A stretch of 64,000 nucleotides of DNA from Bdellovibrionota bacterium. Lineage in GTDB: Bacteria; Bdellovibrionota; FAC87; UBA2466; JACKAF01. Position numbers and translations under genes: made by a program. The stretch spans positions 128,245 to 192,244 of the forward strand of contig JAWKNY010000002.1 in assembly GCA_041391485.1 (NCBI GenBank), given 5' to 3'. This document shows, one piece after another, positions 61 to 33,297 of this stretch; positions within the stretch are counted from its first letter, which is position 1, and each line of letters begins with the position of its first letter. Under the pieces are notes generated by a model. It searched no databases. It was not told the origin of the DNA and saw nothing but the letters and a program-made list of their open reading frames with translations.

Positions 61-2244
61 TCAGCCAGCCTTCCTATATTGTTCCAGAAGAGGAGAGAGT
101 TCCTCTTGCGAGGGCACTTTCATCTCCAGCTGGCGCATTTTCTCTTCGATGGCGTGAACCATCGCGTTTAAAGTCGGGTCCATCGGCATATCAGGGTGCA
201 AGGTATGCGGGGGACAAATCTGGATGAGGGACTGGATCGCCGCCAAGGCCTCATGGAACTTGCCCGCAAGTTCAAGCTTGATGGCCTCCATGATCTTGCC
301 CCGCGTGGAGAGTTTCCACTCAATCACGGCAGGCGGGTGGTGCTCAAAAATTTCGTAAACCAGAGATTTCTTGGCTCGTCCCTTCAGCATGACATAGCCG
401 GCGGGCCGGTAGAACTGGTAGTCATGCTGGAGATCGATGAACTCCTTGGAACAGAGAATATCGACAGAAAATTGCCGTGTAATGGTCTCCAACCGGGAGG
501 CCACGTTTACCGGATCCCCTATCAAGGTGCGATCTATTTTGTGGTTGGATCCGAAATTGGCGGAAAGCATCGTACCGTGAGAGATACCCGTCCCAAACTG
601 CAGGAGTTCTTTATGCTGTTCAAAACGCTCACGATTCGCTGCTGAAAGATTCTTTCTCGTTTCGACAATCGCCTTTAAACAAGAAGTCGGATCCGAGAAC
701 TCAATCATCATCGCATCGCCGATAATCTTATCGACTCGGCCGCGCTCTGCATACACGGCATCGTTCACAATCTTGAAAAACTCGTTGATAGTTTTCTGGC
801 ACTCAAACGCCGAGTACGTCTCAAAAAAGGTTGTGTAGTTGTGCATGTCCATGAAAGTGATGGACTTGTTCAGGTTCCGGGGTTGGTACTGGAGCGGGTC
901 TTCCCCTCTGTCGAGTTCTTCCACAACATCAATACTCACAAAGGAACGGATTACCTGGTCTCTTCGTTTCAGGTTGGTAACCTTGTTTTCCAGCTCATCC
1001 ATTACTCGGAGCTTGTCCCTTTGTTCTTTGAGCTTGTCTTGCGTCACCACGTTGAGTTGCTGACCAGCGGCAAAGGCAAGTAGCAACGACTGGCAGAGCG
1101 TTCCGATGGGTAGTCCCCACGAATAAATGTAGCTGTGGTCCAAGGCGCCGGAAAGCCACGCCACAATGAGAAACGCTCCCAAGGTAAATGGAATCCACGA
1201 GAGCGCGTAATACAGGCTGATGTTGTTGCTGCGGTTGCGAGTCCACAGCACGACGCCTACCGACGGTAGGACCAACATATGGATGAGCGCAAAGAACCTT
1301 ACCGGGATCAGGGCGTACGCGCTATTGGTGGCAAAAACGGTGATGATGGTCAGAACATCCATCACAGGCAAAATCAAGAGTAGAGACTTGAGGCGGTCCT
1401 TTCCCGAAAAGTAGGGTTTCTTGGGAAAGAGGTCGAGCAAAGCCGCGGAAAAAAGATAAATGAAAAACAGTAGAATGGGGGCAGAAAGCGCCGACCACCA
1501 GAAGTCGGTATGAAAACCGAAAATCACATCAGGAAGGATGCCTTTGTGGTAGGAGCTAAACGAAACCGTGAAGTGAATGGTGGAAGCCAAAAACAACGAG
1601 TAGAAAAGGTAGGTACGGTTGGGATAAGTCACAAACAGGAAGATGTGATAAACCATCAAGAGCAGCAACCCACCAATGAGTGTGCAAAACACGGCCAAGT
1701 CGAAGTCAGTCTTTACCTCGTGCATCGGTAAGGAACGCGCCGCCGTTGCCAAAGAGTTGGATCGGCTTCGTACCGAGAAGTAACGGGTACTCTTTCCGGG
1801 CGGGACCTCAAACTTCAACGCGGGAACGCTCTCAAAGCGTTTCATGGGCAACGTCGAACCGACGGAATCCAGAAGTTTACCGGATTCGTCGTACGCGTGG
1901 ATCTGCTCCAGGAATACCGGATTGAACTCAAAAAAGACGGTGCGCGGAAGCTTCTCATCGTTGAGGAACTGGGCTTTCACCCAGGCCGTCGTGGTCTCCA
2001 GCCCAAAAGTTAGGTTGGCAGACTCCGGAACCGCCCAGCTCTGGGCTTTGCCAATAACATCCCCGATCGCAACGTCATTGGTCTCATCCAGAAAGTAGAG
2101 GATGTCCTCGTTTGTCTTTCTGTCCAGCGAATCGGTGACCTCGATCACGCGCGCTTCGGTTGTAGAGGCTGAAGGCGCACCCGCCCAAACCTGTAGGCAC
2201 AGCAGTAGCCATACTACTCCCAGGATTTTTTGCCCGAAGGTCAT
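61..2244 (-). CDS. 7TMR-DISM-type membrane sensor fused to class III adenylate/guanylate cyclase
   Basis: 727-aa ORF. Signal peptide MTFGQKILGVVWLLLCLQVWAGA, extracellular domain, about 7 hydrophobic helices and a coiled coil. Cyclase motifs ITFMDMHNYT, IGDAMMIEF, GDPVNVASRLE. Confidence 0.85.
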   Translation of the reverse strand: MTFGQKILGVVWLLLCLQVWAGAPSASTTEARVIEVTDSLDRKTNEDILYFLDETNDVAIGDVIGKAQSWAVPESANLTFGLETTTAWVKAQFLNDEKLPRTVFFEFNPVFLEQIHAYDESGKLLDSVGSTLPMKRFESVPALKFEVPPGKSTRYFSVRSRSNSLATAARSLPMHEVKTDFDLAVFCTLIGGLLLLMVYHIFLFVTYPNRTYLFYSLFLASTIHFTVSFSSYHKGILPDVIFGFHTDFWWSALSAPILLFFIYLFSAALLDLFPKKPYFSGKDRLKSLLLILPVMDVLTIITVFATNSAYALIPVRFFALIHMLVLPSVGVVLWTRNRSNNISLYYALSWIPFTLGAFLIVAWLSGALDHSYIYSWGLPIGTLCQSLLLAFAAGQQLNVVTQDKLKEQRDKLRVMDELENKVTNLKRRDQVIRSFVSIDVVEELDRGEDPLQYQPRNLNKSITFMDMHNYTTFFETYSAFECQKTINEFFKIVNDAVYAERGRVDKIIGDAMMIEFSDPTSCLKAIVETRKNLSAANRERFEQHKELLQFGTGISHGTMLSANFGSNHKIDRTLIGDPVNVASRLETITRQFSVDILCSKEFIDLQHDYQFYRPAGYVMLKGRAKKSLVYEIFEHHPPAVIEWKLSTRGKIMEAIKLELAGKFHEALAAIQSLIQICPPHTLHPDMPMDPTLNAMVHAIEEKMRQLEMKVPSQEELSPLLEQYRKAG

Positions 2245-2390
2245 GGTAAGGATAAGTCTCCAACGAGCTTATCGGCTTTTATTCTTAAGTACTTAAGCGA
2301 TTTGCGACGCGGTAAGCCACTCCAAAAGGCCCTACCGGCAAAGGTTTCCAGTCGCGGTGTCCCCCGCCATTCACCGAAACTAAATAAATT

Positions 2391-4609
2391 CTATTTGCCC
2401 GTGAGAAAATCGATGAGTTCCCCGAACTCCTGGGACCGCGTGTTGAGCGACACATCGACGACGACCTCCTGGTTTTCCTTCTCCAGGAACAGAACTTCTT
2501 CAAAGTGCGGGAGATCGTAGGTAATCGCCAGGTCGTGGGGCAGCGTGTACTTCCAATCATCGCCTTTCTTGTAGCTGTAAAGGCCCATTTCTACGCGCAG
2601 CTCAGTACGATCTTCGGTGTTCTGATCCGACTCGTCGTTCCCCTCGGGAAGCACCATGTGGGTGAGGCGCTTAGTGTAGGCCGCATCATCACAGCTGTAA
2701 AGCGGAGGAAACGCCTTCGGCGCGTACTCGGACTCCGCCTTGGCGTTCTTGCTTTGCGAAAGTAGCGCCACTCCGAGATAACGCACAATTCCACTATACG
2801 TATCCAGATTAAGCCCATCGTGTCCCGAACCCTTGGTGGCGTTAATAAACGGCTTCACCTTTTTCGCAAAGTCCTCGGACTCCTGGACCACAAAAAGTTT
2901 TGGTTCTTCAAACCCGCAGCGCGTGGACTTGCCAAGCTCGATGGCGGCCGCCGCCTGCCCGGTCTTTTGGGCGCTCGCCCCGTAGCTGGGAAACGCGTCC
3001 GGATCTTTGGAAGGGGTAGCGGTAAAAACCTTCTCGGAAATGACTTCTGTCTCTAGGTCTTTAATCTCGTCGAGATAGCTTTTGTTGCCATAGACCGGGG
3101 TACCGTCAATCACGACCAAGTTCACGTCTTGAACATTCACGTGCGCCACTAGGTTCGTGTACGGATTCGCGTTTGCCGAACGCGTGGCAATCAACGTCCC
3201 CATCGCTCCGACTTGGAGGGTCCCCACACCGTGTTCGCCTTTTTTCTCAAAACCGTAGTGATTCATGATTTGTGCGGGGTACTTGGTGACCATGTAGTAG
3301 AGCTCCTGGTCGCTGAAGAGCTTTTTGGAGAAACCGGATTTTACGACGTAGTTTCTGGCGAGTTTGAGTTCTTCTAATACGCCTTTGGAGCCGGTAGGCG
3401 TCCAGTCGGAACCAAGTGCTACCGTCACACCCGCTTTCTTCGCGGCCTCAACGTCCACCGTTTCCCCGTACAGTAGGAAGTTGGAGTACGGAGACCAAAC
3501 GAGCCCCATCTCATTCTTTGCCATCGTCTTGAAATCTTCGTCACGAAGCCCGACACCGTGGATGAAACTCACGCCCGGAATGGTCAAACCTGCCAAGCGC
3601 AAAACCTGAAACTCAGTCCAGTTATACGGATCTAAGCGGCGGCCCTCACCCAGATGCGTAATGAGCGCGGAGCGCCGAGCGCCCTGCAGTTCCACGTAGC
3701 GCTTGATAAACTCACTGTGCTGCTTCACTCCAAACACTTCCGTAAAGTAGTTGATGAAGGATTCTTCATCCGGTACTTCGCACTGCTTGCGTAGCGTTTT
3801 CTCACCCTTGAGGAGCCAATCGTACGACGCCTTTGTGTAAACGTTCTTCGTGGCCACTTCGGGTAAATCACCACAGTGATCTTTTAAGTACTTGACCACA
3901 GCCTTCCCGTAGCAGGTCCCTTCCCCGATGCAACCCAACTTCTCAATTACAGGACGGAGTTCGTTCCACAGAAAGTGAACGCGTTCAGGCTCGATGATGT
4001 CACCCGCTGAACTGATGGCTTTGCGCTTACTGATGTAGGCTCCGGTATCCTCCACCGAATGCACCGCAAATTTTTGTGGTTGAGCATGTGGCCCTGCAAA
4101 TAGGCAGTTCCCAGAACCATGGCTTGAAGCTCTGACCACCGGTACGCGGCCACTTGCGCCTCGGTCTTTGACGACCAAGGGTTCATGTTGTCCGACTGCA
4201 CCTGCTGGTAATTGGCCACTTTTTTGCGCCACTCAAAACGGTTCGCAAACTGCCCTTTGGCAGCGTCCCAGGTGGGCAGCATGTTTTGCTTATTGTGGCC
4301 GTGCAGGTCAATGAGGCCCGGATAGATCACGTCGTAACTGCGAGAGCCTTTGGGCTTTAACACCAAAACATCGGCCCCTTCTTTTTTGAGTGTCTTGCTT
4401 GTCTCTTCCACATCGTCCACTTCTTCGATGCGCTGGATGAGTCTATCGTCGACAAGCACATAACCCAAAACCGTACTCTCGGCGTCTTTTTCAAGGTACT
4501 CGCCCGGAATCTTTCCGATGAAGGCGGTGGGTTTGGCAACAGCAGCCGCTGTTAAAAGTGTTTCCGCAACAAAAGAGAGAATAAAACCGAAAGAAAACGC
4601 CCGACCCAT
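2391..4609 (-). pseudogene. secreted metal-dependent amidohydrolase, frame broken once (ORFs 3947-4609 and 2391-4232)
   Basis: The N-terminal ORF has a signal peptide and PGLIDLHGH (HxH). The C-terminal ORF continues the family (VALGSDW, NLVVIDGTPVYG). The frames swap between 4069 and 4087 at an AAAAATTT run on the coding strand. Confidence 0.75.
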
Positions 4610-6852: not shown

Positions 6853-8262
6853 TTAGTTGTACCCTTCGATACGCACGTTTCCAATATCATACTTTTTAAG
6901 CCTGCGATACAGAGTGGGCCGCGAAATACGGAGCTTCTTGGCCATCGCTTCCACGCTTCCAGTGTGTGACTTGAGCTGGTCTTCCAGAATCTTCTTTTCC
7001 AGGTGGCTCAAGTAGGTTTCCAAGCCGTACTCATAAAGAACTTCCGTATCCACTTCCGCCCCTACGCCCTGCGACTCAGAAAGCGGCTTCGGATCTTCAA
7101 AAGGACGGTAGCGATCGCTCAGGTGGCTGACCTCAATACGTTCCGCGGCTCGGGACATAATCACGAGGTACTCGACGGCATCGCGCAGCTCACGCACGTT
7201 GCCCTCTTCCCAATGGAACTTCTTGAACAACTCCACGATCTCCTCGTCATACGGCTTATCGTAACCGGCAAAAGCGTTTACAAAGTGTTCGAAGAGAACC
7301 TTGATGTCAGATTTGCGTTCACGCAGAGGGGGGATGTTGACCACCACCTGAGAAATGCGCGAATAAAGATCCTGGCGGAACTTTCCTTCCTCCACCATCT
7401 TCTTCAAATCACGGTTCGTGGCACAGAGTACCCGAACGTCCGCACGCCGTTTCTTGTCGTCCCCCAGACGGTAGTATTCCATCGAGTCTAAGAACGTGAG
7501 AAAGTTGGCCTGGGTTTCAAGCGGCATCTCTCCGATTTCATCGAGAAAGAGATCCCCGCCTTGGGCAAGTTCCACTAGCCCACGCTTGTCAGCGATGGCA
7601 CCGGTAAAAGCGCCCTTCTTATGGCCGAAAATCTGATCCTGAAACTGCTCGTTGTTCAAGCACGCACAGTTTACCTGCTCAAAGGGTCGCGCTTGGCCCT
7701 CTCGCTCAGCCACTACCTTGTTGGACAGCAACGCGAACGGAGTCTTCCCAACACCCGTTTCTCCGTAAAAGAGAATGCGCATGTCTTGGGCCTGTTGAAC
7801 CAATTGAATGGCCCGGCGGATCCCTTCGCTTTCGCCAACAAGCTGATTCGTCTCGACACTCTTGTCGAACGCGCGCTTGAGCACACGAAACTTTTTGGAA
7901 TCCGAGAAAACTTTGTTGAGTTTTAGATTGAGCGTGGCTTCGTCAAAAGGTTTTTCCAGGTAATCGTTCGCGCCCAGCTTCATGCACTTCACAACGGTGG
8001 GCACGTCTCTGAAACCAGACTCCATGATCGCGGGTTTCTCTGGGAAGCGCTTTTTAAATTCGACCAGAACCTGCGTACCATCGTGTTGCGGATCTTTCAG
8101 ATCGATATCAATGATGGCGCCGTCCAAGTCTTCTCTTTCGAGAATGGAAATTGCTTCCACATAATTGTGGGCTGGGTGCAGTTCATAGTTGCCCTTGAGC
8201 GCCAGCTCCATGACCTTAAGGAAAACCGGATCATCATCAAGAATCAGCAGATTTAGCTTCAT
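6853..8262 (-). CDS. sigma-54-dependent response regulator (NtrC family)
   Basis: 469-aa ORF. Receiver domain (LILDDD...IIDIDL), AAA+ Walker A GETGVGKT, GAFTGA sigma-54 contact motif, C-terminal Fis-type HTH (LRISRPTLYRRLKKY). Confidence 0.9.
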   Translation of the reverse strand: MKLNLLILDDDPVFLKVMELALKGNYELHPAHNYVEAISILEREDLDGAIIDIDLKDPQHDGTQVLVEFKKRFPEKPAIMESGFRDVPTVVKCMKLGANDYLEKPFDEATLNLKLNKVFSDSKKFRVLKRAFDKSVETNQLVGESEGIRRAIQLVQQAQDMRILFYGETGVGKTPFALLSNKVVAEREGQARPFEQVNCACLNNEQFQDQIFGHKKGAFTGAIADKRGLVELAQGGDLFLDEIGEMPLETQANFLTFLDSMEYYRLGDDKKRRADVRVLCATNRDLKKMVEEGKFRQDLYSRISQVVVNIPPLRERKSDIKVLFEHFVNAFAGYDKPYDEEIVELFKKFHWEEGNVRELRDAVEYLVIMSRAAERIEVSHLSDRYRPFEDPKPLSESQGVGAEVDTEVLYEYGLETYLSHLEKKILEDQLKSHTGSVEAMAKKLRISRPTLYRRLKKYDIGNVRIEGYN

Positions 8263-8472
8263 GGGTACCCCGTAGAGAGTGGGCCAAAAATAACGCCCGG
8301 CAATATACTAAACCCCCAATTTTAAAGCAAGTTCGCCTAACCTGCCGCGTAAGAAAATTCTTACTTAACCTCCAGATTTCTTTAGGGTTTTTGAAACATC
8401 CCGTCGTGACAAACTTGTGCTTTGGACCCATCGTTATAGCTTCTTTAGAGCTTTTCCAATTTAGGAGGATCT

Positions 8473-9294
8473 ATGCGCGCTTTGAGCAGGACGGCAGTAC
8501 TCTTGTTGGTATCCTTTTACGCAGCACTCGGAACGGCAGCCACCGAGCTGCGTATGAGCCAAACGATTTCGGTCAGCACTCTGGCGGGCGAGGCCTTCGC
8601 CGAAGACCTGGGACACTACACAGGTATTTCGGGCGCGAACGGCCTTTACCAGCAGATATCCGGCCCAGCCTGGGTAACGCTGACCTCAAAAGGCATCGTT
8701 TACGGAACGCCCTCTCTCGAAGACGTGGGCCTGAACAAGCTTTATGTGTCACTCGAATACGCAGGAAAGACGGAACTCTTTCTCGTCGAAATCGATGTGC
8801 GTCACCCGGATGAACTCCCTAGCCTCAGCTTCAACGCCAAGGTGGGGGATGTGTTTCTGAACGACCTTAGCCGAACGACTGGGATGGTCGGTCACTACAC
8901 CTTTGAAAACCTCCCGGCATGGCTGGAAGCGACTGGGGCCGGAGTGGTCGTTGGAAAGCCTAGCACTGCCGATTTGGGCGTACACCAATTCCAGGTCTAC
9001 GTGGACGGAACCGACCAGTCCTTCACGGTCCGCATCCAGGTGCTCCTTCAGGACCAGACCTACGCCCCGATGGCGGTAAAGGTAGGTCAGTTTGTTTCTA
9101 TCGACCTTCTCAAGGCCATCGGGCTGCAGGGACGTTACACGGTTTTCGCCCCTGTGTTTTTAAAGCTTAGCTCGTCGGGCGTACTCAGCGGCACACCTAC
9201 CCGGTTGGATGTGGGTGCGTACCGGATCTGGGTGGAGATCCGCCAAGGTCTGAAACTCTATCGTTACTACTTTGATCTAGTAGTGGAAAACTAG
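8473..9294 (+). CDS. secreted protein with three Ig-like (He_PIG/dystroglycan-type) repeats
   Basis: 273-aa ORF with signal peptide. Three repeats of about 85 aa share G-x-F-x-x-DL...G-x-Y...PAWL/VFLKL...G-x-x-x-G-T/K-P-x-x-x-D-V/L-G. RBS AGGAGG lies upstream of ATG 8473. Confidence 0.6.
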   Translation: MRALSRTAVLLLVSFYAALGTAATELRMSQTISVSTLAGEAFAEDLGHYTGISGANGLYQQISGPAWVTLTSKGIVYGTPSLEDVGLNKLYVSLEYAGKTELFLVEIDVRHPDELPSLSFNAKVGDVFLNDLSRTTGMVGHYTFENLPAWLEATGAGVVVGKPSTADLGVHQFQVYVDGTDQSFTVRIQVLLQDQTYAPMAVKVGQFVSIDLLKAIGLQGRYTVFAPVFLKLSSSGVLSGTPTRLDVGAYRIWVEIRQGLKLYRYYFDLVVEN

Positions 9295-9305
9295 CCTCTC
9301 CACTA

Positions 9306-9349
9306 GCGGCAGGTATTCGGCACGGGCCGGGTATCTGCCGCACTTTTTT
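9306..9349 (+). terminator. intrinsic terminator between convergent genes
   Basis: 16-bp stem GCGGCAGGTATTCGGC / GCCGGGTATCTGCCGC with loop ACGG (3 G-U pairs), followed by ACTTTTTTA. Confidence 0.6.
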
Positions 9350-10698
9350 ACCGCTTCGATCGCATCGTCACAAACTCTTCGGCGCTGGTTGGGTGAATTC
9401 CCACCGTCGCATCAAAGTCGTGTTTCTTCGCACCCGCTTTGATCGCAATCGCAACCCCTTGCACAATCTCAGGCGCGTCCGCTCCCACCATGTGGCAGCC
9501 CACCACTCGGTCGGACTTGGGATCCACGATCAGTTTCATGTAGGTCTTTTCTTGAATAGGGGATAGCGTGAACTTCAGCGCCCTAAACTGGCTTTCGTAA
9601 ACATCCACGTCCCCAAACTGGGATTTCGCTTCGGCTTCCGTCAAGCCCACCGTCGCTAGCGGGGGCTGAGAAAAGACGGCAGCGGGAATGTTTGAGTACT
9701 CCATCTTGAAATTCTTACCGTTGAAGAGATTTTCTGCGAGCAGAGTCCCTTCGCTTGTGGCCACAGGTGTCAGGTTTACCCGATCCGTACAGTCGCCAAT
9801 GGCATAAATACTCGGCACACTGCTCTGACTGAACTCGTTTACGAGGACTTCGCCCCGCTCACCCAGTTTTACGCCGACGGACTCCAAACCCAGATTTGCC
9901 GTATTGGGGGCGCGGCCCGTCGCCACAGAGCAAAACATCGGCTTCAAGTTCACTACCGTCGGAAAGCTTCATTTTTTTGGATTTTCCATGGGCTGAGATA
10001 TTCTCAATTGTCACACCCGTACGAAAGTGGATCCCCTTTTTCTCCAGCTCGGCTTGAAGATAAGCGCGCATTCCCTCGTCAAAACCCCGAAGAATTTTGT
10101 CGGCACGGATGATGACTTCGACCTCACTGCCAAAACCGTTCAGGATGCCCGCAAACTCGACGGCAATGAAGCCTCCTCCCGCAATGACAACTTTCTTGGG
10201 CTGCTCTTCCATCTCGAACATTTCGTTCGAGGTCACTCCCAGCTCAACACCCGGAATAGGCGCTTTAGTCGGACGGCCTCCGACGGCGACAACAATGTAC
10301 TTGGCAGTAAACGATTTGCCGTTCACTTCTACGGAGTTCGGTCCCGTCACCACCCCTCTTCCCGAAAATCTTTCGACCTTGTTCTTGGAAAGCATCCCTT
10401 CGTAGAGTCCGCTCAATCGGGAGATCTCCTTGTCGCGCCCGGCTTTGAGAGCTTTCCAATCAAAGGACGGCGCTTGGGTGGTCCAGCCATAGGATCGCAT
10501 CAACTCCACTTCGTCCGAAAAATGCGATCCGAGCACCATAAATTTTTTGGGAATGCACCCGCGGATCACGCAAGTTCCGCCGAAACGATCCGACTCGCAA
10601 ATGCCTACCCGAGCCCCTAGACCGCCCGACCAACGCGCGACACGAACGCCGCCAGAACCGCCACCTAAAACAAAAAGATCAAAGTCAAACTCGCTCAT
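9348..10698 (-). pseudogene. gor: glutathione-disulfide reductase, frame broken once (ORFs 9859-10815 and 9348-9953)
   Basis: N-terminal part has LFVLGGGSGG and the redox site GGTCVIRGCIPKK. C-terminal part has [15 protein letters not shown] and [12 protein letters not shown]. The frames swap at 9921-9935 (TTTT run). True start is probably ATG 10698 (MSEFDFDLFVLGGG). Confidence 0.85.
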
Positions 10699-10774
10699 GC
10701 TCTCTCCCTCGCCGGGTATACCGCACCAGGAATCAGGCGACAACGCCTTTGGCCCTGTGATAGCGTCTGCGATC

Positions 10775-11320
10775 ATGAGCGACAAACGCAATCCCTGGAA
10801 GACTCTCTCTACCAAAACGCATTACGACAACCCGTGGATTCGAGTGGATGAACACCAGGTCCTCAACGCTGCGGATAAACCAGCAATCTACGGAACCGTG
10901 CACTTCAAGAATTTAGCTCTCGGGATTGTGCCCATCGATAACGAAGGAAATACCTATTTGGTGGGCCAGTTCCGCTATCCACTGGATCAGTACTCTTGGG
11001 AAATTCCCGAGGGAGGCGGTGCTCTAGAAATAGAACCTCTTGTCAGCGCGAAGAGAGAGCTCAAAGAAGAGACAGGGATTACGGCGACGGAATGGAAGGT
11101 AATTCAGGAATTGCACCTTTCCAACTCCGCTACCGATGAACGCGCCATCATCTATCTGGCGACAGGACTCCGGTTTGGGGATTCGGCTCCAGAGGAGGAT
11201 GAGGCGCTTACGGTGAAGAAGCTCCCCCTGAAAAAAGCGTACGAGATGGTACTCAACGGTGAAATTACGGATGCTATCTCGGTGGTGGCGCTACTCCGCG
11301 CTCAAAGCTTAATGCACTAG
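10775..11320 (+). CDS. Nudix hydrolase (ADP-ribose pyrophosphatase-like)
   Basis: Nudix box GGGALEIEPLVSAKRELKEETGI. The N-terminus MSDKRNPWKTLSTKTHYDNPWIRV is typical of NudF-like proteins. The upstream 76 codons of the track ORF run antisense to gor and are discarded. Confidence 0.8.
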   Translation: MSDKRNPWKTLSTKTHYDNPWIRVDEHQVLNAADKPAIYGTVHFKNLALGIVPIDNEGNTYLVGQFRYPLDQYSWEIPEGGGALEIEPLVSAKRELKEETGITATEWKVIQELHLSNSATDERAIIYLATGLRFGDSAPEEDEALTVKKLPLKKAYEMVLNGEITDAISVVALLRAQSLMH

Positions 11321-12037
11321 TTTTTTCTGAAAACAGCCCATATAGCCCACTCGCAAACTATCCGTGTAAACAAAACTAAAGTCTTGGTGCACCCGTCTTT
11401 TAAAAACCGACGACCAAAAGGGCCAGGAGAAAAACTTGGGAATGCTGCCCCTAAACTCGAGCGGCTCCAGCCCGCATTCGCGCGCGAAGCTCTCTACTTC
11501 CTTTGGCTTTAAGAACAATTCATAAACGTGCACATTGGGAGGTGACTCTGGAAACCAGCGCAACGCCTCGATGGCAAGGAGGCGCGATGCCCAATTGCGG
11601 TTGAAGGTGGAGAACATCAGTTTGCCGCCGGGTTTCAACACTCTCGCCCCTTCGGCGAGCACTCTTCCGGGATCGTCCACATGCTCTAAAAAGTCCATCA
11701 GCAGCACCGCGTCGAACGAGTCGGATTCTAGCGGTAAATCAAAAGCATTCCCGTGAAGAAACTCAGTGCCGGGCACCCCTTGGTCGCGCGCCACTTTGAG
11801 CGAGTTTTCCGAAAGATCCACCCCGGTTACCGAAAAGCCTTCTTTCGCCAGCGGATTGGCGACGAGTCCTCCGCCACACGCGACATCCAGAACCTTTTGT
11901 CCGGCGCTCAGGTGCCGGCGGACAAAGTCTAACTTGATTCCGGATTCGGCCCGCAGCAATCCAATGGCGTGGCGATCCCCGTGGTACCACTGCTCGCCCA
12001 GCTCATCATAAAACGCGTTATTAACTTGTTCGCTCAT
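11309..12037 (-). CDS. class I SAM-dependent methyltransferase, UbiG-like
   Basis: 242-aa ORF. SAM motif VLDVACGGGLVANPLAKEG and a UbiG-like N-terminus (FYDELGEQWYHG). It overlaps the upstream membrane-protein gene by 17 nt, so it is the last gene of the PKS operon. Confidence 0.8.
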   Translation of the reverse strand: MSEQVNNAFYDELGEQWYHGDRHAIGLLRAESGIKLDFVRRHLSAGQKVLDVACGGGLVANPLAKEGFSVTGVDLSENSLKVARDQGVPGTEFLHGNAFDLPLESDSFDAVLLMDFLEHVDDPGRVLAEGARVLKPGGKLMFSTFNRNWASRLLAIEALRWFPESPPNVHVYELFLKPKEVESFARECGLEPLEFRGSIPKFFSWPFWSSVFKRRVHQDFSFVYTDSLRVGYMGCFQKKLVH

Positions 12038-12485
12038 GTTCTTTTCTCAAAGTGGGAACTAGCACCCACGCCGCCCATTGATAGATCGAAAAACCAAATA
12101 CGGCAAAAGGGAGACCTGTCCTAAAGAGAACCGCTTCCCCTTGCCACCACAGCCCCCCGGTCAAAAAGAGCAGAACGGGGTGATTCACGAAAAGAAGCGC
12201 GTGCAGCCAGTTTTCCGTGGGTTCGCAGCTATCCGTATGCACCCACTCATCTTTTGTGATGAGTAAGGCCGAAAAAATCGCCCCTCCTACGTAAACGTAC
12301 AACCACGGGAGTGTGGCTGGCGCAAAGGCCGGGACGCAGAGCACAGAACCAAAAACCAGAGAATCGGCGACATGCCCATAACTCTCAAAGCGCCGAAGGC
12401 CGCGTTTGCGATGAAACACCCCTTCATCCAGAGTCATCAGAAGCCCTTGGATGCCCCACGCGATTAAGCTTGCGTAAAAAAGCAT
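12021..12485 (-). CDS. uncharacterised 4-TM membrane protein in the type III PKS operon
   Basis: 154-aa ORF with four hydrophobic segments and conserved-looking polar residues (DEGVFHRKRG, GHVAD, KDEWVH, NWLH). Its start lies 3 nt after the PKS stop. No family recognised. Confidence 0.5.
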   Translation of the reverse strand: MLFYASLIAWGIQGLLMTLDEGVFHRKRGLRRFESYGHVADSLVFGSVLCVPAFAPATLPWLYVYVGGAIFSALLITKDEWVHTDSCEPTENWLHALLFVNHPVLLFLTGGLWWQGEAVLFRTGLPFAVFGFSIYQWAAWVLVPTLRKEHERTS

Positions 12486-12488
12486 GGC

Positions 12489-13556
12489 TCAGACTCTTTC
12501 CATTACCGAAGAAGCAAAGGTCAAACCGGGACCAAACGCCAAAGAAAGAATGCGATCCCCGCAGCGCACGTTGGGATCTTCTAACAGCTCATTCCATATA
12601 TAGGGCAACGAACACGAGGAGAGGTTGCCGCGCTCTTGCAGCACGCGATCGCTATGAGTCGTGCTTCCTGGTTTCAACTCCAAGGCTTCCGCGACCGCTT
12701 CAACGATGCGGGGCCCTCCGGGATGAATGGCAAAGTGATCGATTTCCGACAAGGATAAGTTCAAAGAGGCCAGAAATTCTTCCACATAGTCTCTCAAGGC
12801 ACCCACAATCTTTCTGGGAACTTCACGACTCAAGGTCATGCCAAAATTGCTCGACCCCAGTGTCCAGGTCATATCGCCCAGACTCTGTGGGAGCACCCGC
12901 TCCCTGGAACCGCACCACAGGAAGCCTTTACTGGGCTTCTCCGAAGTGACGTCGATGCGTGCAGCTCCATCGGCAAAAAGGGAGTTCACCACAATCTGCG
13001 TGGCCGACGCGCCATCGCTATCCAGATGCAAAGAGCAGAGTTCGACGAACAAGAGCGAAGCCGGCCCGTCGAGTTGCGTTGCCATGGAAAGCGCGGGAAT
13101 GGAAGCGTAACAACCCATGTGCCCCACGTGCCAAACACGCGCGTGCGACTCTTTCGCGCTCGTCAACTTCTGCAGGGCATTGGGCGAGGTATAGCCCGTG
13201 CATGAAACCTGAATCAGGTACTTGGCATCCAGGGCTCCGTCAAAAAGTTCGTTCGCCAAACGATCAGCCTCTCGTTCAAAAATACGCATGCGCGCCGCCA
13301 GCGAAGGCTGGCGTTCACCGTAGAGTTCCATCTCGTCCCAACGGGTGTGGCAGACATCATCGAGAATGACCTGGCGTTGACGGATTCGCGGATTTCCTAT
13401 CAAGCGCTCGTAAAGGTTGAGCGCACGTGCGGCCTCCGGATCCGGATGGCCTTCCGTTCTGAAGAGAATGCGGGCCATGAGCCAACGCAAGGTATCCTCT
13501 TGCGCGACAGCGAAGGGCATTACCGCGGGCCTGATTTTTGAAAGGTACCGGCTCAT
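12489..13556 (-). CDS. type III polyketide synthase (chalcone synthase-like)
   Basis: Cys-His-Asn triad contexts VSCTGYTSP, FAIHPGGPRIVEAV and GNLSSCSLPYIW, with C-terminal FGPGLT. Start is placed at ATG 13556 (MSRYLSKIRP), preceded by GAGG. Confidence 0.85.
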   Translation of the reverse strand: MSRYLSKIRPAVMPFAVAQEDTLRWLMARILFRTEGHPDPEAARALNLYERLIGNPRIRQRQVILDDVCHTRWDEMELYGERQPSLAARMRIFEREADRLANELFDGALDAKYLIQVSCTGYTSPNALQKLTSAKESHARVWHVGHMGCYASIPALSMATQLDGPASLLFVELCSLHLDSDGASATQIVVNSLFADGAARIDVTSEKPSKGFLWCGSRERVLPQSLGDMTWTLGSSNFGMTLSREVPRKIVGALRDYVEEFLASLNLSLSEIDHFAIHPGGPRIVEAVAEALELKPGSTTHSDRVLQERGNLSSCSLPYIWNELLEDPNVRCGDRILSLAFGPGLTFASSVMERV

Positions 13557-13660
13557 ACGTCCTCTAAAGCGCCCGCTTAGCCAGACGCATTCCGATCCCC
13601 AACCTATTCGCCTTTGCGCGAGGTGACAACTTCGCACGCTTTTGCTATTTCCATGCGTTC

Positions 13661-22451: not shown

Positions 22452-23576
22452 CGAATCAGGATTTCCGCATTCGGTTTTCTAACGGAAGCCGTAACTCGAT
22501 ACTTTTCGACCGGATGCCCTACGGCAATCATCATGATTGGCTTTTCGTACTCCTGAAGATCCAGACAATCCTTCAGGTCCTTCTCCACCAGCCGATCCAC
22601 GCAAAGGTTGAGGCAACAGGTGACAAGCCCCAAAGAATGCAAGGCATAAACTAGAGACATCGAAAACATGCCGCCATCGATCCAGCCCTGACGTCGCTCA
22701 CGAATACTAAAAAACGCGCGGGAATCACTCGTCACCAAAAGGAGACGCGTGACTCCATGTCCAAAGCCCCGATTACCGTTCTGAAAAGCCAGAGCGGCCT
22801 GGATGAATTGGGGATTTTTTAAATCGTGCAAAAACCAGGGTTGGCGATTGCAAACGGACGGTGATCGTTTGGCCATTCCAAGAGCCGAATCTATGAGGCT
22901 CATCGGATACCGGAGAGTCTGAAAAATCCCGCACACTGTGCCGGCAGTAAAACCAGGCCTTCAAATCTGCCCGAGCGTCCTTGAGAAAGTCCTCTCGGTT
23001 GATCTCCTGATAGCCACCGCCCTCTACCGCGTACGGCTTGCCCAGTAGAAGCCCGCACCGGGCTATCGCTTCGCGAAGATTGGTTTGAGCAATCCCGCCT
23101 TTTTCCTGGAAATCCGCATACCTCGTCAAGACCTGCAAAACCGTTCCGCACAGTTCGTGGGGTCCGTACTCCCTGATGTAGCGTTCAAGATCGCGGGCAA
23201 GGCCTTCTGAGACGCCCTCACCGAAGCCCGGCGCCCGTCCCGCAAACACAAGCGACTTTTCAAGTTTGTGGTACTCTTTGGTGAGTTTCGCGCGAAGATT
23301 GACTTCTGTCTCCACCATAAAAAATGGGGAAGCAAACTTGAAGTAACTTTCGATATCGTCCAAGTAAGTCAACAGGGCCCATCCTCCGTGCTTCCTGCAA
23401 AGGCCCCAAAAGCGCACCACAAGCCCAATAGAACTGAAAATCCGTTTTGAGAGAAGCCAATTTACCCAGACGCCGGGTTTCAAAACGCGAAGAATACTGC
23501 GCGGCTCTCTCTCGACGGGACGGGGAGCTGGTGTCTGTGAGTCAGCTGGCTGTTCTTCGATTCGCTTGGTCTCCAA
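22442..23576 (-). pseudogene. unknown N-terminal domain fused to a nitroreductase-family flavoprotein domain; frame broken once (ORFs 22773-23576 and 22442-22936)
   Basis: The upstream frame ends with CRHSVRDFSDSPVSDE. The downstream frame continues LIDSALGMAKRSPSVCNRQPW...IMMIAVGHP. Together these form the nitroreductase signature RxSxRxF...PV..E...I...A..APS..N.QPW. The junction is at 22895-22901. Confidence 0.7.
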
Positions 23577-24624
23577 CCTTATCTCCCCATTTCAATTGGT
23601 TTACGAGCTTTAGAGAGTCCTCCAGAAAACTCAAAGACTGGCTTCTCAACTTTCCCAAACGCTTCTGAATCGATCCATAGTCCAAATTATCAAACCACAA
23701 AACAGGTTGGCTGAAATCTTCCGGCGTAATAGGAATGCCAAGTTGTTGCAGCAATGCGTAGACTTTGTGGAAAGCATCCTTGCGATTTAGCCAAAGAATT
23801 TTCTTCCCTAGAATTAGCGAAAAAATAAAGGCGTGGTAGCGGTTTGTGACTACATGCGAACTTTGTGCGATGGCCTTCACCCATTCAGCGGGACCCGCAT
23901 CGCGGATGGCCTGAGTCTCTATAGAGCCCAGTCCATCCGCTTCAATGGCCCTCATGGGTAGCTGACAGCGTGCCTGCAAAGCTCTCACGGCAGTGCTCAT
24001 CTCCGGTTTATGTTGGAGTCGGGGAGTGTGTACCAGGATGTGCGCCTCTTTCAAATCGCCCGCTATCGAACTCCAATCAAAAAGTAGAGTGGGATCCAAA
24101 CATATTGAAACATCACCCGAGAAATGAGGAGCCACCAGATCTTGAGTGTGACGATCTCGAACAGAGATGCGATCAAATCGGGCGAGTAGTGGATAGGATC
24201 CTGGGTGCAAGGCTTTCGCGCCCGAGGCACTTGCCGCGTAGGCCACACGACGGGCTGGAGAGCGAACAAAGTCCAAGAAGAGGCTGGGATCGTAGCCATT
24301 CGCTCCGTCCGGATTCCAAATCTGGTCACTGCCCGCGATGTACAGGTCGTACTTTGTAAACTTAAGCTGATGCCTCGAATAGTAGGGAAACCCTCGTAGA
24401 CCCTTTAAGAAACCTTTGAACCGCGCCCGTCTGCGCCACTCGTGTAGGGATCGAGGGAACATTGGATTGAAATAGAATCGTCGAGTCCAAGCCGGGCGAT
24501 AGTCGATGATTTCCGCATTCATCCCGCGCTCACGAAGCACACGACACAGCGCATAGCTTTGAAGAACAGCTCCGTAATTCAGGGAATGGTGGAAGGTAAG
24601 AATACCGATGCGAGGAGCGGTCAT
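23542..24624 (-). CDS. polysaccharide pyruvyl transferase family protein
   Basis: 360-aa ORF. The N-terminus IGILTFHHSLNYGAVLQSYAL and IAGSDQIWNP are typical of the CsaB/WcaK-type pyruvyl transferase family. Confidence 0.8.
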   Translation of the reverse strand: MTAPRIGILTFHHSLNYGAVLQSYALCRVLRERGMNAEIIDYRPAWTRRFYFNPMFPRSLHEWRRRARFKGFLKGLRGFPYYSRHQLKFTKYDLYIAGSDQIWNPDGANGYDPSLFLDFVRSPARRVAYAASASGAKALHPGSYPLLARFDRISVRDRHTQDLVAPHFSGDVSICLDPTLLFDWSSIAGDLKEAHILVHTPRLQHKPEMSTAVRALQARCQLPMRAIEADGLGSIETQAIRDAGPAEWVKAIAQSSHVVTNRYHAFIFSLILGKKILWLNRKDAFHKVYALLQQLGIPITPEDFSQPVLWFDNLDYGSIQKRLGKLRSQSLSFLEDSLKLVNQLKWGDKVGDQANRRTAS

Positions 24625-24734
24625 GCGTACCTAACATTATGGCCGACCCCACGTCAGAAAGCGAATCTCAAGGTAGTTGAGACCCTCAAGATCTTTTATA
24701 ATTCAATAATCTCACCCGAAAAAAGGATCCCCCA

Positions 24735-26040
24735 ATGACTGATCTCAGCACGCCCTTTTTGGGCTTCGAACTTGAAAACCCCTGGTGCGTGGCATCCGCG
24801 CCCCCACGGCCACGGGCAAACTCATGGCCCAAGCTTTTGATGCGGGGTGGTCCGCCGCTGTGATGAAAACGGTGGGACCCGTGGAAGAGCCCATCGTGAA
24901 TGTCGCTCCGCGCATTCAGGCGATGAAGAAGTGGAAGCGTGAGATAGCCCTGCAAAACATCGAACTCATCACCGATCGCCGTCTCTCGGTTTGGCTTGAA
25001 GAGCTGAGGTTTTGCGCAAGCGCTACCCACGAAAAATGATCATTGGTTCAATCATGGCTCCCGGGCATGACATGCAGGCGTGGGCCCGGCTTGTTGAAGA
25101 AATGAACAAGGCCGGGTGCGACGCACTGGAGCTGAACCTCGGATGCCCACACGGAATGACCGAACGGGATATGGGTGCCATCTGCTCTCAGGACGCCGAG
25201 ATTGTTTTTAATATTGTGCAAACAGCGAAGAGTGTCTCCAAGATCCCCATCCTGACCAAACTCACTCCCAACGTAACCAACATCAAGGTGATGGCGGATG
25301 CAGCAAGAAAAGCAGGAACGGACGCCATTACGGTAATCAATACGGTCAACGGCATCATCGGAATCGATATTCGGAAACGTGAGCCGCTGCTTTCGGTAAA
25401 TGGGCTGACGGCCATAGGCGGAATCTCAGGAAACGCCGTCAAACCGGTCGGTCTCAAATGTGTGGCTGAATGCAAGCAGGCCACCGGACTTCCGGTCTCC
25501 GCTACAGGTGGCATATCGAGCTGGTCTGACGGTGTCGAATACCTTCTCATGGGAGCCGATCAGCTTCAGGTATGCAGTGAGATCATGATCCGTGGCTTTA
25601 AGATTATTCAACAGCTCAATAAGGGACTCGCTCGCTACATGGAAGAAATGGGATATAGCCGTCTGCAGGAAGTAAAAGGCGAACTCTATAAGAGCGTCAC
25701 CAGTTTTGAGACGCTCTTGAAAACGTCTTCCGCCGAAAAGGTGAAAGTAAACGAGGAAACCTGCACCGGATGCAAGCTCTGCGTGGTGGCATGCGAGGAC
25801 GCAGGCTATCACGCTCTCGCGATGAAGAGTGCGCCACCCTCACCGCGCACTTTGAAACCCCGGGAAGTTGCGGATGTCATCGTTCAAAATTGTACCGGTT
25901 GCAATCTGTGCGTCGCGGTCTGCCCAGTACCTGATTGCATGAGTCTCTATGACTCCAAGCAGACTTTTCCCTACGAGTTACACGCTAGCTACGCCGAAAA
26001 CACCCTAAGCTCCTCCGGCTCCAAAAAAGCCGCTGGATAA
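24735..26040 (+). pseudogene. dihydropyrimidine/dihydroorotate dehydrogenase-like FMN protein with C-terminal 2x[4Fe-4S] ferredoxin domain (PreA-like); two frame breaks
   Basis: Three frames read in series. The first gives MTDLSTPFLGFELENPWCVASAPP. The second gives TATGKLMAQAFDAGWSAAVMKTVG...NIELITDRRLSVWLEELR. The third gives LRKRYPRKMIIGSIM...LELNLGCPHGM...CTGCKLCVVACED...CTGCNLCVAVCP. Breaks are at CCCCC 24801-24805 and TTTT 25010-25013. Confidence 0.8.
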
Positions 26041-26048
26041 CTACCGCC

Positions 26049-26990
26049 ATGCCCAATCAAAACCTATCTATTTGTATCCCAACATACAAACGACCCGAGG
26101 TCTTAGCAGAGGGGCTTTCGTACTTAATTCCCTTCGCCAAAGAATTGGATATCGCCATCTTCGTGCAAGACGATGGCTCCCACGATCACACGCCCGATGT
26201 CGTTTCAAAATTGCAGGCGGAATACGAGCATCTCCACTTTAGAAGTTTGCCCGAGCGCCTGGGATACGATCGCAGCTTTCATCAATTGCTGACCTGGCCG
26301 ACAACGCGATACCGCTGGCTGCTGGGTGACTACAGTCGTATTCGCGGCGAATGGCTTGGGAAAATGCATGAGCTACTCACCGCTTCGCTGCCGCTCGACC
26401 TCGTCGTCGTGAACGGTGCGTATCGAATCAGGGGCCTCGCTTCGCAAGACTACGAAAGCGCGAACAAACTCTTACACGATCTCGGCTGGCACATGAGCTG
26501 GCTGAGCTGCTCCATCTACAGCGACCGCCTTGTGGAGAAAGCCGATTTCGAAACCTACTACGGCACGAACTTCGCTCACTTCTGTGCCATTTTTGACTAC
26601 CTGTCGCGGCGGCCGGTGCGGGTGAGATGGGAAGGGGAAAGCATCGTCTTCAATACCAAGCTTCCGCGAAAGCACTTCTATGAAGCCAAGACGATCCAAA
26701 TGTTCATCAACCGGTGGACGGAGGCCGTAATCTCCTTACCGCCAGCTTACTCTTTGAAAGAAAAGATCCACGCGCTTCGGGCCCATTCCCCGGCCACGAG
26801 AATGAATCGGTATAGAACCTTCATCGAGCATCGGGCCAACGGGAGCTACGACAGAGCAGTATTTAATGAGAATCGATGGCACCTATGGCTTGCCACTCCG
26901 CTATCCACGCGGAGGCTATCCTGGATTGCGCGCTCGCCGAGACTGCTCATGCGAACGTTGTCGAAATTAATGGGTTGGTTCAGTAACTAG
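26049..26990 (+). CDS. glycosyltransferase family 2-like protein
   Basis: 313-aa ORF. N-terminal LSICIPTYKRPEVL and an acidic motif VQDDGSHD. Confidence 0.65.
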   Translation: MPNQNLSICIPTYKRPEVLAEGLSYLIPFAKELDIAIFVQDDGSHDHTPDVVSKLQAEYEHLHFRSLPERLGYDRSFHQLLTWPTTRYRWLLGDYSRIRGEWLGKMHELLTASLPLDLVVVNGAYRIRGLASQDYESANKLLHDLGWHMSWLSCSIYSDRLVEKADFETYYGTNFAHFCAIFDYLSRRPVRVRWEGESIVFNTKLPRKHFYEAKTIQMFINRWTEAVISLPPAYSLKEKIHALRAHSPATRMNRYRTFIEHRANGSYDRAVFNENRWHLWLATPLSTRRLSWIARSPRLLMRTLSKLMGWFSN

Positions 26991-26994
26991 GAAT

Positions 26995-28317
26995 TTAGGC
27001 CGCAAGCGCGTGGAGCGAACCGAACTCAACAAGAGTCTCCTCCACGTACTTTAACATCTGCTCACTCAGCGTAGGCGAACACCCTAGGAAGAAGACCCGC
27101 TCAATGACCTGGTTGGCTAGAGGGTACTTTCGGAAATCATCCAATCCACTATAGGCGGGATGGCACAGGATATTTCCCCCAAAAAAGTTTCTTGTTTGGA
27201 TTCTTTTCGATTCGAGATGACGGACGATCTCATTCCTCATCGAAGCATTCGGGGCGACGATAGGGACCGCAAACCAACTGGTTCTCGCCTTGGGGTGCTC
27301 GTCGGGAACTTCGAATCCGGCTAGCCCGTCTTCGATCACGCTTTGCAGCCGATTCTTGATATCGATTCTTCGTCTAATAACCTCGGGTAACTTTGCAATT
27401 TGCACCAAACCGATACTTCCCTGAAGATCCAAAGGCTTTAAGTTGTAGCCGACATTTGAATAAACATAACGGTGATCCACGGTACACGCGACGGACGGGA
27501 GCCAGTTGGAAAACCGTTTTCCGCAAGTCCCATTCGGGAGCATGTTGTTTATTCCGCTACAATAACAATCGCGGCCCCAGTTGATCAAACTCCTGACCAC
27601 TTTTTCGAGTTCGCCGTCATTGACCGAAACCATACCGCCTTCACCCGTAGTGATGTGGTGGGCCGGGTAAAACGAGCAGGTAGAGGCGATGGCGTGGCTG
27701 CTCAGCGGCTTGCCATCCCACAAGGACCCTAAGCTATCGCACCCGTCCAGAACTAGCTCAATTCCGTGTTTCTTCGCCAACTGATCCAAACGGTCCATGT
27801 CGGGAGGGTTTCCTAGGCTCGGAGAAACCAGGATCGCACCGGTGTTCTTGTTGATCGCCGCCTCCACTTTGTCCAAATCAAAATTCAAATCGGACATTTG
27901 GATATCGACAAACTTGGGTCTCATCTGATTTTGTAATATCGGCGCAACGGAAGTGGGAAAACCTACGGCGGAAACAATGATTTCGGTTTTATCAGTCCAA
28001 CCCAAATACTTCTTAAGCGCACCGATCATCACCAAATTGGCGGAGGCTCCCCGAATTGGTCATGACTGATTTTTGGCCTCCACCACTTTCGAAAACTCAG
28101 CTTCAAAGCGACTGACCGCTTCGCCCGAGGCCAGCCATTTGCCCGCCAACAGAGATTCAATCGCTGCGACTACCTCCTCTTCATTCCAGAAGGGCCCGCC
28201 ATAGAGTACAGTGTCTTTTGCTGGATCGAATTCCTTCTTGCGCATGTTGTGCAAGTACGGAAACAGATCGTGCTCTTTTTTTAGAGCTTTCAGCCAGCTT
28301 TTAATTTTCTCTCGCAA
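26995..28317 (-). pseudogene. rfbH: RfbH/DdhC-type PLP/PMP-dependent sugar 3-dehydratase (DegT/DnrJ/EryC1 family); compensated double frameshift
   Basis: SFYPAHHITTGEGG, with His in place of the usual Lys, is the E1/RfbH hallmark. ORFs 28060-28317 and 26995-28035 share one frame, separated by a TGA. An 18-20 nt stretch in another frame reads SVMTNSGS. Breaks are at AAAAA 28070-28074 and GGGG 28049-28052 (coding strand). Confidence 0.85.
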
Positions 28318-29147: not shown

Positions 29148-29342
29148 CTCGCCCTAGTTATCGTCGGTAAAACCCTTAGTCTGAAGGCAAAGACAAGCGG
29201 ACCTAAACCATTGAATTAGTGTAGAAAGCCGGTGGTTTTCGCTTCTTTGATCAACAAGCAACCCAGCGCAGCGCGGCATTGCCCCAGTGCGTCATCCCTG
29301 GCTCTGGTATAATGGAGGCCATCGCACGCGATAGATTTTTCT

Positions 29343-30230: not shown

Positions 30231-30240
30231 TCTTCTTACT

Positions 30241-31134: not shown

Positions 31135-31156
31135 GCCTACACACTTGAGAATCCGA

Positions 31157-33151: not shown

Positions 33152-33297
33152 GAGCCCCCCTTGAAGTTCAATTACCTACACGCGCATGCGGTTTGGCGGC
33201 ACGCGTTAAGGCGCCGCGAGCAATACTAAATCTCGTCTCCGCGGCGCTACGACTTGCCAGTGATCGGAGGGGGAGTAGAATCTAAAAAACTCGGGGA

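Follow-up and report, generated by a model that had tools for sequence, protein, structure and literature searches.

A type III polyketide synthase cassette, probably for phenolic lipids, with a small membrane protein of no known family, shared by Bdellovibrionota and other bacterial phyla

The window analyzed here, a stretch of 64,000 nucleotides from a Bdellovibrionota bacterium (assembly GCA_041391485.1, contig JAWKNY010000002.1, positions 128,245 to 192,244 of the forward strand), carries three tightly packed genes for a type III polyketide synthase (PKS), a membrane protein of 154 amino acids and a UbiG/Coq3-like methyltransferase (MT). This cassette is a variant of the type III PKS phenolic-lipid operon, with a third component that belongs to no known family or fold, and we found no description in the literature of either the cassette or the membrane protein family. 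Its product is most likely a methylated phenolic membrane lipid. The reading that we favor, though tentatively and at less than even confidence, is that of a self-contained three-gene cassette in which the membrane protein would be a metal-dependent tailoring enzyme, most likely one for ring oxygenation. The locus is laid out as follows.

12489..13556, minus strand: type III PKS gene, 355 aa; its ATG at 13556 lies inside the open reading frame (ORF) 12489..13637, and the NCBI protein MEZ4749479.1 has the same start.
12021..12485, minus strand: membrane protein gene, 154 aa; from the ORF list, with an NCBI product of equal length.
11309..12037, minus strand: UbiG/Coq3-like MT gene, 242 aa; from the ORF list, with an NCBI product of equal length.
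13557..13660, no strand: intergenic region of 104 bp that separates the starts of the divergently oriented PKS and ABC-F genes; presumed operon promoter region, by position.

A Shine-Dalgarno sequence (AGAGGA) precedes the PKS ATG at 13556, the PKS stop codon TGA is separated by 3 nt from the ATG of the membrane protein, and the ATG of the MT lies 17 nt within the membrane-protein ORF. An initial annotation, made from the sequence without database searches, had described a compact minus-strand operon with just this 3-nt gap and 17-nt overlap; its coordinates and its description agree with the ORF list and the NCBI products.

The evidence that carries the finding is the conservation of the arrangement across genomes. 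In a scan of 185,579 species, each represented by one genome, 354 were found to encode a relative of the membrane protein, and the best 80 loci were fetched. Judged by their record titles, about 55 of these belong to the Bdellovibrionota (including Bacteriovoracia and Oligoflexia), eight to the Myxococcota, six to the Chlamydiota and five to the Acidobacteriota, with one each from the Verrucomicrobia, Elusimicrobiota and Fibrobacteria and a few loosely labeled or unclassified metagenome-assembled genomes. With the window's three proteins as tblastn queries, 70 of the 80 loci show all three genes on the same strand and in the sequence PKS, membrane protein, MT; of the 79 loci that could be evaluated, 77 have the PKS directly upstream of the membrane protein and 74 have the MT directly downstream of it. 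The arrangement is far beyond chance, and the co-occurrence of the membrane protein with a type III PKS, which the initial annotation had put forward as a check on the grouping, extends over several phyla. In the two loci that lack the PKS, the membrane protein and the MT are present (L056:7977-9141 and L013:8001-9171) and no PKS gene is seen in the roughly 8 kb upstream; in L056 the pair comes after a RelA/SpoT-like gene. Clustering of all flanking ORFs revealed no further family shared beyond close relatives, and the cassette therefore comprises three genes and no more. Over 46 complete loci, the pairwise distances within each of the three protein sets are correlated with one another at r = 0.87-0.92, a value reached by none of 500 permutations, which is consistent with inheritance as a unit. 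The mean pairwise identity of the membrane protein is 48%, as against 44% and 52% for the two enzymes. A tblastn search with the membrane protein against plasmid and phage collections gave no match, and hence no evidence of a mobile vehicle.

The first gene was initially taken to encode a type III PKS with an intact Cys-His-Asn triad, and this stands: Cys149 (within HMGCYAS), His278 (AIHPGG) and Asn311 (RGNLSS) are invariant in 61/61 sequences, which comprise the window PKS and the full-length orthologues from the fetched loci. The Pfam domain Chal_sti_synt_C is matched above its cut-off (2.4e-16), and ACP_syn_III_C is matched as well; the N-terminal Pfam domain of type III PKS was not detected in the window PKS at E<=0.1, which we attribute to the divergence of the protein. 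The closest PDB sequences are those of Azotobacter vinelandii ArsC, as the G284W mutant (3vs9, 1.9e-33) and as the wild type (3vs8, 1.2e-31), followed by mycobacterial Pks11/Pks18 and Streptomyces coelicolor THNS; there are 127 type III PKS matches in the PDB, and the aligned PKS residues are 46-349 for 1u0m and 82-355 for 3vs9. DpgA, the best NCBIfam match, was rejected as an identity (101 bits against a cut-off of 425). The sequences of 3vs9 and 3vs8 differ at one position only, with Trp in the former and Gly in the latter; Trp231 of the window PKS aligns there and is invariant in all 61 sequences. With a Trp at this site (ArsB Trp281), cyclisation takes the aldol course to alkylresorcinols, and with a Gly (ArsC Gly284) alkylpyrones are formed (PMC6274091). 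On account of Trp231, which is one well-studied determinant, we predict that the window PKS is an alkylresorcinol synthase of the ArsB type. Both alkylresorcinols and alkylpyrones had been considered as products at first; the invariant ArsB-type Trp favors the resorcinol and makes the pyrone less favored.

The membrane protein is a different matter. It has no match in NCBIfam, nor in Pfam at E<=0.1, and a Pfam search over 97 family members at E<=10 returned scattered noise alone (DUF1600, BTP, Gaa1 and others) with no consistent family. A word-indexed search found 168 relatives, which are all about 145-160 aa long and free of Pfam domains, and an exhaustive profile search with a hidden Markov model (HMM) over 1.84 billion representatives found 317 clusters at E<=1e-3, of which 274 at E<=1e-10; of the clusters listed, the 150 best, none leads to a known family. 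As far as sequence comparison reaches, the family is small and closed, without visible remote relatives. The statement of the initial annotation that the protein matches no ICMT, UbiA or flavin-hydroxylase family is borne out by the Pfam and NCBIfam scans. An identity as ICMT/PEMT was rejected, there being no Pfam match for the window protein or the 97 members and no structural match, as was UbiA (no PF01040 in the window protein). Membrane di-iron fatty-acid hydroxylases/desaturases were likewise rejected, with no match to PF04116 or PF00487 and with motifs of the form DE-x2-3-H and E-x3-H, not the His boxes HX3-4H/HX2-3HH. A protein of this last type is encoded elsewhere in the window, about 27 kb from the cassette (40007-41152, minus strand; 381 aa, N-terminal FA_hydroxylase domain PF04116, 1e-7; membrane di-iron hydroxylase/desaturase type).

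An AlphaFold2 model computed with the family alignment is confident (predicted local distance difference test, pLDDT, 94.1; predicted template modeling score, pTM, 0.88) and places helices at residues 2-28, 32-54, 59-76, 79-86, 89-114 and 119-142. When the model was compared with the PDB by Foldseek, an approach already proposed in the initial annotation, nothing was found below E = 1, the best match (TIPE2, E = 1.4, TM 0.43) not being meaningful; when the family profile was run on PDB sequences, the one match, to a designed helix bundle, was not significant (E = 0.37). By hydropathy, five segments are hydrophobic and two stretches (residues 20-41 and 77-95) strongly polar, and Lys and Arg are concentrated in both polar stretches and the C-terminal tail (family means 4.3, 2.0 and 2.4) as opposed to the other loops (0-0.55). 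Given this distribution and the natural C-terminal fusions to a cytoplasmic enzyme described below, the protein appears to have an N-out/C-in topology with five segments, placing an invariant polar cluster at the cytoplasmic membrane surface. The four membrane helices first proposed have thus to be replaced by five, in line with hydropathy, Lys/Arg distribution and the AlphaFold2 model.

The conserved-looking His, Asp and Glu residues that first drew attention to this protein prove to be invariant columns, of which there are 22 in the 97-member alignment and 24 in a 34-member alignment. They include D20, H25, R28, E34, H38, D41, K78, D79, E80, H83, E91, H95 and H102; five His, three Asp and three Glu are among the 22, and E21 and C87 are nearly invariant. 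Helical arithmetic arranges the invariant residues as stripes, one face per helix. Two similar motif pairs can be seen, D20-E21-x3-H25 ... E34-x3-H38 and D79-E80-x2-H83 ... E91-x3-H95, such that a pattern DE-x2-3-H-x7-8-E-x3-H, resembling a binuclear metal-carboxylate signature, is present twice. A half-versus-half comparison with hhalign aligns both motif copies, at P = 0.03 only, and we therefore claim no internal duplication. The motif also resembles those of ferritin-like or AOX-type di-iron proteins, but with the same hhalign value, no such fold found by Foldseek and the designed helix bundle (E = 0.37) as the only profile match; none of these three comparisons supports true homology.

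Seven of the 80 loci, from five phyla, encode the membrane protein and the MT in one ORF: these in-frame fusions are L005 (Elusimicrobiota), L034, L038 (Geothrix limicola) and L079 (Acidobacteriota), L045 (Kofleriaceae), L061 (Parachlamydiales) and L078 (Bdellovibrio). Among the 150 best clusters at 50% identity, 12 proteins have at least 300 aa, and 11 of the 12 carry the membrane domain N-terminal to a UbiG-like domain. Ten of these 11 are 385-420 aa long and match the MT almost from end to end, and for P0151 (304 aa) and P0237 the alignment covers a part of it only; at least ten of the 150 clusters are fusions of this kind. The linkers differ in length, which suggests that fusion took place several times independently; in some of the proteins the MT domain begins just a few residues after the last membrane helix. 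This recurrent and at times intimate N-terminal fusion, together with the 17-nt gene overlap in the window, would suit a possibility that we consider somewhat doubtful, namely that the membrane protein is a non-redox subunit of the MT, which would bind the head group of the alkylresorcinol at the membrane surface and offer it to the soluble S-adenosylmethionine (SAM)-binding domain. It is a similarly doubtful extension of this idea that the His and Glu residues perhaps deprotonate the phenol, the pair being a split functional analogue of the ICMT-type methyltransferases and the product a plain alkylresorcinol methyl ether. Known alkylresorcinol and alkylpyrone methyl ethers need no hydroxylase, and the cassette holds no reductase partner, both of which accord with a subunit role.

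Other variants of the locus speak against it. In five complete Bdellovibrio sp. HCB genomes (L017, L025, L035, L057 and L075; about 6865-9330) no MT is adjacent: the PKS is followed by a membrane protein of 166 aa with a C-terminal extension and then, on the other strand, by a convergent gene for an aldo-keto reductase. In addition, P0230 (L081:870-2168) is a homologue of the membrane protein fused to a C-terminal UbiA prenyltransferase domain (PF01040, 6.6e-14), and directly follows a PKS of the same family (L081:3-869), a single observation on a 2.2-kb contig that should be treated as anecdotal. The Bacteroidota relatives of its UbiA domain lie in loci without a PKS (L082-L084), and this branch therefore says nothing on the cassette. 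The five HCB genomes retain every invariant residue, and P0230 keeps the polar cluster although its fusion partner is an integral membrane enzyme that needs no anchor. This persistence without an adjacent MT, or with UbiA in its place, argues for a function independent of the MT, and five invariant His with six invariant carboxylates exceed what the binding of a head group would normally need.

The same observations bear on the tailoring, anchoring or export role that had been suggested at the outset. A small polytopic membrane protein encoded beside a lipid-producing PKS could in principle export the phenolic lipid, or flip it to the outer leaflet or outer membrane, but we regard this as very unlikely: the conserved residues cluster on the cytoplasmic face instead of lining a trans-membrane path, the fusion partners of the protein are tailoring enzymes of the cytoplasm and the membrane, and nothing like an SMR, MATE, RND, ABC or flippase fold is found by Foldseek. 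The recurrent MT fusion and the one UbiA fusion favor the part of that suggestion which concerned tailoring, or partnership with a tailoring enzyme, and disfavor export.

For the substrate, product, metal binding and hydroxylase chemistry of the favored reading, in which the membrane protein is a tailoring enzyme, we infer the following route. By homology, the ArsB-like PKS would condense a fatty-acyl starter with malonyl-CoA, and aldol cyclisation would give a 5-alkylresorcinol. This lipid would partition into the inner membrane, where the five-helix protein would present its His/Asp/Glu cluster, in which the motif DE-x2-3-H-x7-8-E-x3-H is present twice along the inward sides of four helices, at the cytoplasmic surface; there it would oxygenate the ring, filling the slot that a flavoprotein hydroxylase occupies in the srs, pkq, hid and agq operons. 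The MT, which translational coupling or, in many genomes, covalent fusion would keep close to the membrane protein, would then O-methylate the (hydroxylated) ring to a methoxy-alkylphenol or methoxy-alkyl(hydro)quinone. UbiG/Coq3-type enzymes normally methylate ortho-oxygenated phenols, and ring oxygenation by the membrane protein would yield such a phenol for the MT.

We favor this reading because the membrane protein is the only third partner and no UbiH/UbiI-like flavoprotein is encoded nearby, and because it is as conserved as the enzymes and keeps, whatever its partner, a metal-site-like cluster at the surface on which the head group of a phenolic lipid would lie. Tblastn with the Escherichia coli queries detected no UbiH/UbiI-like flavin monooxygenase within about 8 kb in 81 loci, nor in the 64-kb window, although very distant flavoproteins may escape such a search. 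Several points nevertheless weigh against it. The protein lacks homology to any known oxygenase or metalloenzyme in Pfam, NCBIfam, the PDB profile search and Foldseek, its internal repeat is seen at motif level only (hhalign P = 0.03), and the metal site and its geometry are putative. The cassette encodes no electron-donor (reductase) partner. By analogy with bpsAB-type systems, the UbiG-like MT could methylate a resorcinol hydroxyl directly, with no need of a hydroxylase. Some hosts (Elusimicrobiota, Fibrobacteria and some Acidobacteriota) may furthermore be anaerobes, ill-suited to an O2-dependent step; a literature search on Geothrix limicola gave nothing usable on oxygen physiology.

Membrane hydrolases, too, typically have an invariant cluster of His, Asp, Glu, Lys, Arg and Cys at the membrane interface, and the protein might accordingly perform a different chemistry, as a metal-dependent hydrolase, decarboxylase or cyclase acting on a PKS intermediate, or in the supply of fatty-acyl starters from membrane lipids. 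The ars and ftp clusters carry dedicated starter-unit genes (fatty acyl-AMP ligase, FAAL; acyl carrier protein, ACP; or type I fatty acid synthase, FAS), and the cassette has none of these, as would be expected if the membrane protein took that part. We nonetheless judge such a chemistry to be distinctly unlikely, since the fusion partners observed (MT and prenyltransferase) act after ring formation and none of the fusions is to the PKS, and since Pfam, Foldseek and the PDB profile search revealed no similarity to any hydrolase family or fold.

The third gene encodes a class I SAM-dependent enzyme (Methyltransf_11, 1.6e-27), whose closest solved relative is E. coli UbiG (4kdc, 1.4e-23; 34% identity over 157 residues). 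The UbiG-like character noted initially is well founded: the window MT scores 118.1 bits on TIGR01983, the UbiG equivalog model, above the cut-off of 102.95, and it is because this cut-off is passed that NCBI names the protein "bifunctional ... UbiG". The score is, however, about 39% of the 303.6 bits of E. coli UbiG, and MT orthologues from seven other cassette lineages reach 125-163 bits, the family passing the cut-off by a narrow margin. One might still take the enzyme for the organism's genuine ubiquinone UbiG, placed beside a PKS by coincidence, and besides the name and the score this could draw on a single report of ubiquinone (UQ)-8 in Bdellovibrio bacteriovorus (Spain et al., 2016, as cited in PMC13386864). 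According to a 2026 survey, the UQ pathway is essentially confined to the Pseudomonadota and one class of Desulfobacterota and is found in no Bdellovibrionota, and that survey describes the UQ-8 report as resting on three ubi homologues only and as genomically unsupported (PMC13386864). The MT is moreover locked to the PKS and the membrane protein in 74 of 79 loci and often fused to the latter, cassette MTs score 118-163 bits as against 304 for E. coli UbiG, and no ubi genes are conserved near the cassette, as judged by the clustering of flanking ORFs and by the UbiH/UbiI searches of loci and window; a genuine UbiG is therefore extremely unlikely. The fixed cassette association, the frequent fusion and the low TIGR01983 score lead us to regard the enzyme as probably a paralogous phenolic-lipid methyltransferase. 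The UbiG annotation of the window MT is probably wrong, its hosts being reported to lack the UQ pathway; orphan "UbiG" calls such as those in Bdellovibrio very likely stem in part from the cassette MT, and its family is probably over-annotated as UbiG systematically in lineages reported to lack a ubiquinone pathway.

Comparison with described operons places the cassette among several lipid systems while setting its membrane protein apart. The alkylresorcinol-to-alkylquinone operons srsABC (Streptomyces griseus) and pkqABC (Mycobacterium smegmatis and Streptomyces sp. MNU77), which give alkyl-benzoquinones, are alike in plan, with three genes for a Trp281-type PKS, an MT and one tailoring function and with a long-chain phenolic lipid or quinone in the membrane as product (PMC9927152). 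The third gene of those operons encodes a soluble flavoprotein oxidoreductase/hydroxylase, whereas that of the cassette encodes a five-helix membrane protein of 154 aa; an FAD-dependent enzyme of the srs/pkq/hid type is not found here, the third gene having neither an FAD-binding nor any other Pfam domain. Their hosts are Actinomycetota, those of the cassette Gram-negative phyla. The hidABC operon of picocyanobacteria and the planctomycetal mtr-fdo-t3pks operon, which give hierridin-type lipids, are also tricistronic cassettes conserved over many species, in which the PKS makes pentadecyl- and heptadecyl-resorcinols and the MT tailors them (PMC10896814). They differ in gene order (MT, FAD oxidoreductase, PKS) and in having an FAD-dependent oxidoreductase, not a membrane protein, as their middle gene.

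Methylation at the membrane would be a further point of likeness. In bpsAB of Bacillus subtilis, a type III PKS is combined with membrane-associated methylation to give alkylpyrone or alkylresorcinol methyl ethers, and the methyltransferase of bpsAB and of the Negativicutes clusters is a single ICMT-like integral membrane enzyme. Negativicutes clusters that pair a type III PKS with a methyltransferase resemble the presumed route of the cassette in leading, through membrane-associated methylation, to alkylpyrone or alkylresorcinol methyl ethers (PMC9827899). The cassette differs from both in using a soluble UbiG-like MT and a separate or fused membrane protein without an ICMT/PEMT signature. 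With arsABCD of Azotobacter vinelandii it shares its closest solved PKS relative, ArsC, and the Trp at the ArsB Trp281 position. The ars cluster takes its starters from the dedicated type I fatty acid synthases ArsA and ArsD and contains, to our knowledge, neither a methyltransferase nor a membrane protein of this kind. Finally, agqABCD of Actinoplanes missouriensis combines a type III PKS with a soluble monooxygenase hydroxylase, an O-methyltransferase and a UbiA-like prenyltransferase to make alkyl-O-dihydrogeranyl-methoxyhydroquinones. The L081 variant, in which the PKS is followed by the fusion of membrane protein and UbiA, recalls this system, on the basis of its one 2.2-kb contig; the agq hydroxylase is separate and soluble, and the window has no prenyltransferase. 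The likeness to UbiG/Coq3 itself is one of fold and family, including a TIGR01983 score above the cut-off, and differs in that the cassette MT stands beside a PKS and not ubi genes, in hosts reported to lack the UQ pathway.

As to its surroundings, the cassette is bordered upstream by a divergent ABC-F ATPase gene (start 13661, plus strand) and downstream by a convergent NUDIX hydrolase gene on the plus strand, whose end at 11320 overlaps the last 12 nt of the MT gene (11309-11320). No terminator-like structure was found between the MT and NUDIX gene ends, and a scan of the locus for sigma-70 promoters and terminators gave nothing above shuffled expectation, with no sigma-70 consensus match in 13557..13660; a promoter in that region is presumed from position only. 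Further along the window, a glutathione-reductase-like pyridine-nucleotide-disulfide oxidoreductase (9348-10815, minus strand) is split into two overlapping ORFs, 9859-10815 with Pyr_redox_2 and 9348-9953 with the end of Pyr_redox_2 and Pyr_redox_dim. The closest relative, L001, has one intact oxidoreductase ORF (1995-3533), and the split in the window represents a frameshift/pseudogene or an assembly error. At 8473-9294 (plus strand), a secreted-looking protein of 273 aa with repeated He_PIG putative Ig domains adjoins the gene of a sigma-54 response-regulator activator (6853-8262, minus strand). At about 23500-33200, ORF N-termini resemble family-2 glycosyltransferases and sugar-modifying enzymes, which on the translations suggests a polysaccharide cluster; this run coincides with the lowest guanine-plus-cytosine content of the window (0.48 at 28-30 kb, as against about 0.53).

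Phenolic lipids made by type III PKSs are known to make cysts and spores harder and to change tolerance to antibiotics, and in mycobacteria and Streptomyces they act as alternative respiratory quinones. It is conceivable, though unlikely, that the membrane protein founds a new class of integral-membrane metallo-oxygenases and that, with the PKS and the MT, it forms a three-gene route to a polyketide-derived methoxy-benzoquinone. If true, this would provide a ubiquinone-like redox lipid without the Ubi pathway in Bdellovibrionota, Myxococcota, Chlamydiota and Acidobacteriota, and would explain the orphan "UbiG" homologues behind the disputed report of ubiquinone in Bdellovibrio. Members of this MT family in lineages without a ubiquinone pathway are most likely PKS-cassette enzymes, and others are likely to be named UbiG in the same way as the window MT. 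Experiments could start from the natural fusions, such as that of the isolate Geothrix limicola Red804, or from the complete Bdellovibrio genomes. The cassette is no isolated case, as at least 354 species genomes encode a relative of its membrane protein, and it extends type III PKS lipid biology to predatory bacteria, myxobacteria, environmental chlamydiae and acidobacteria.

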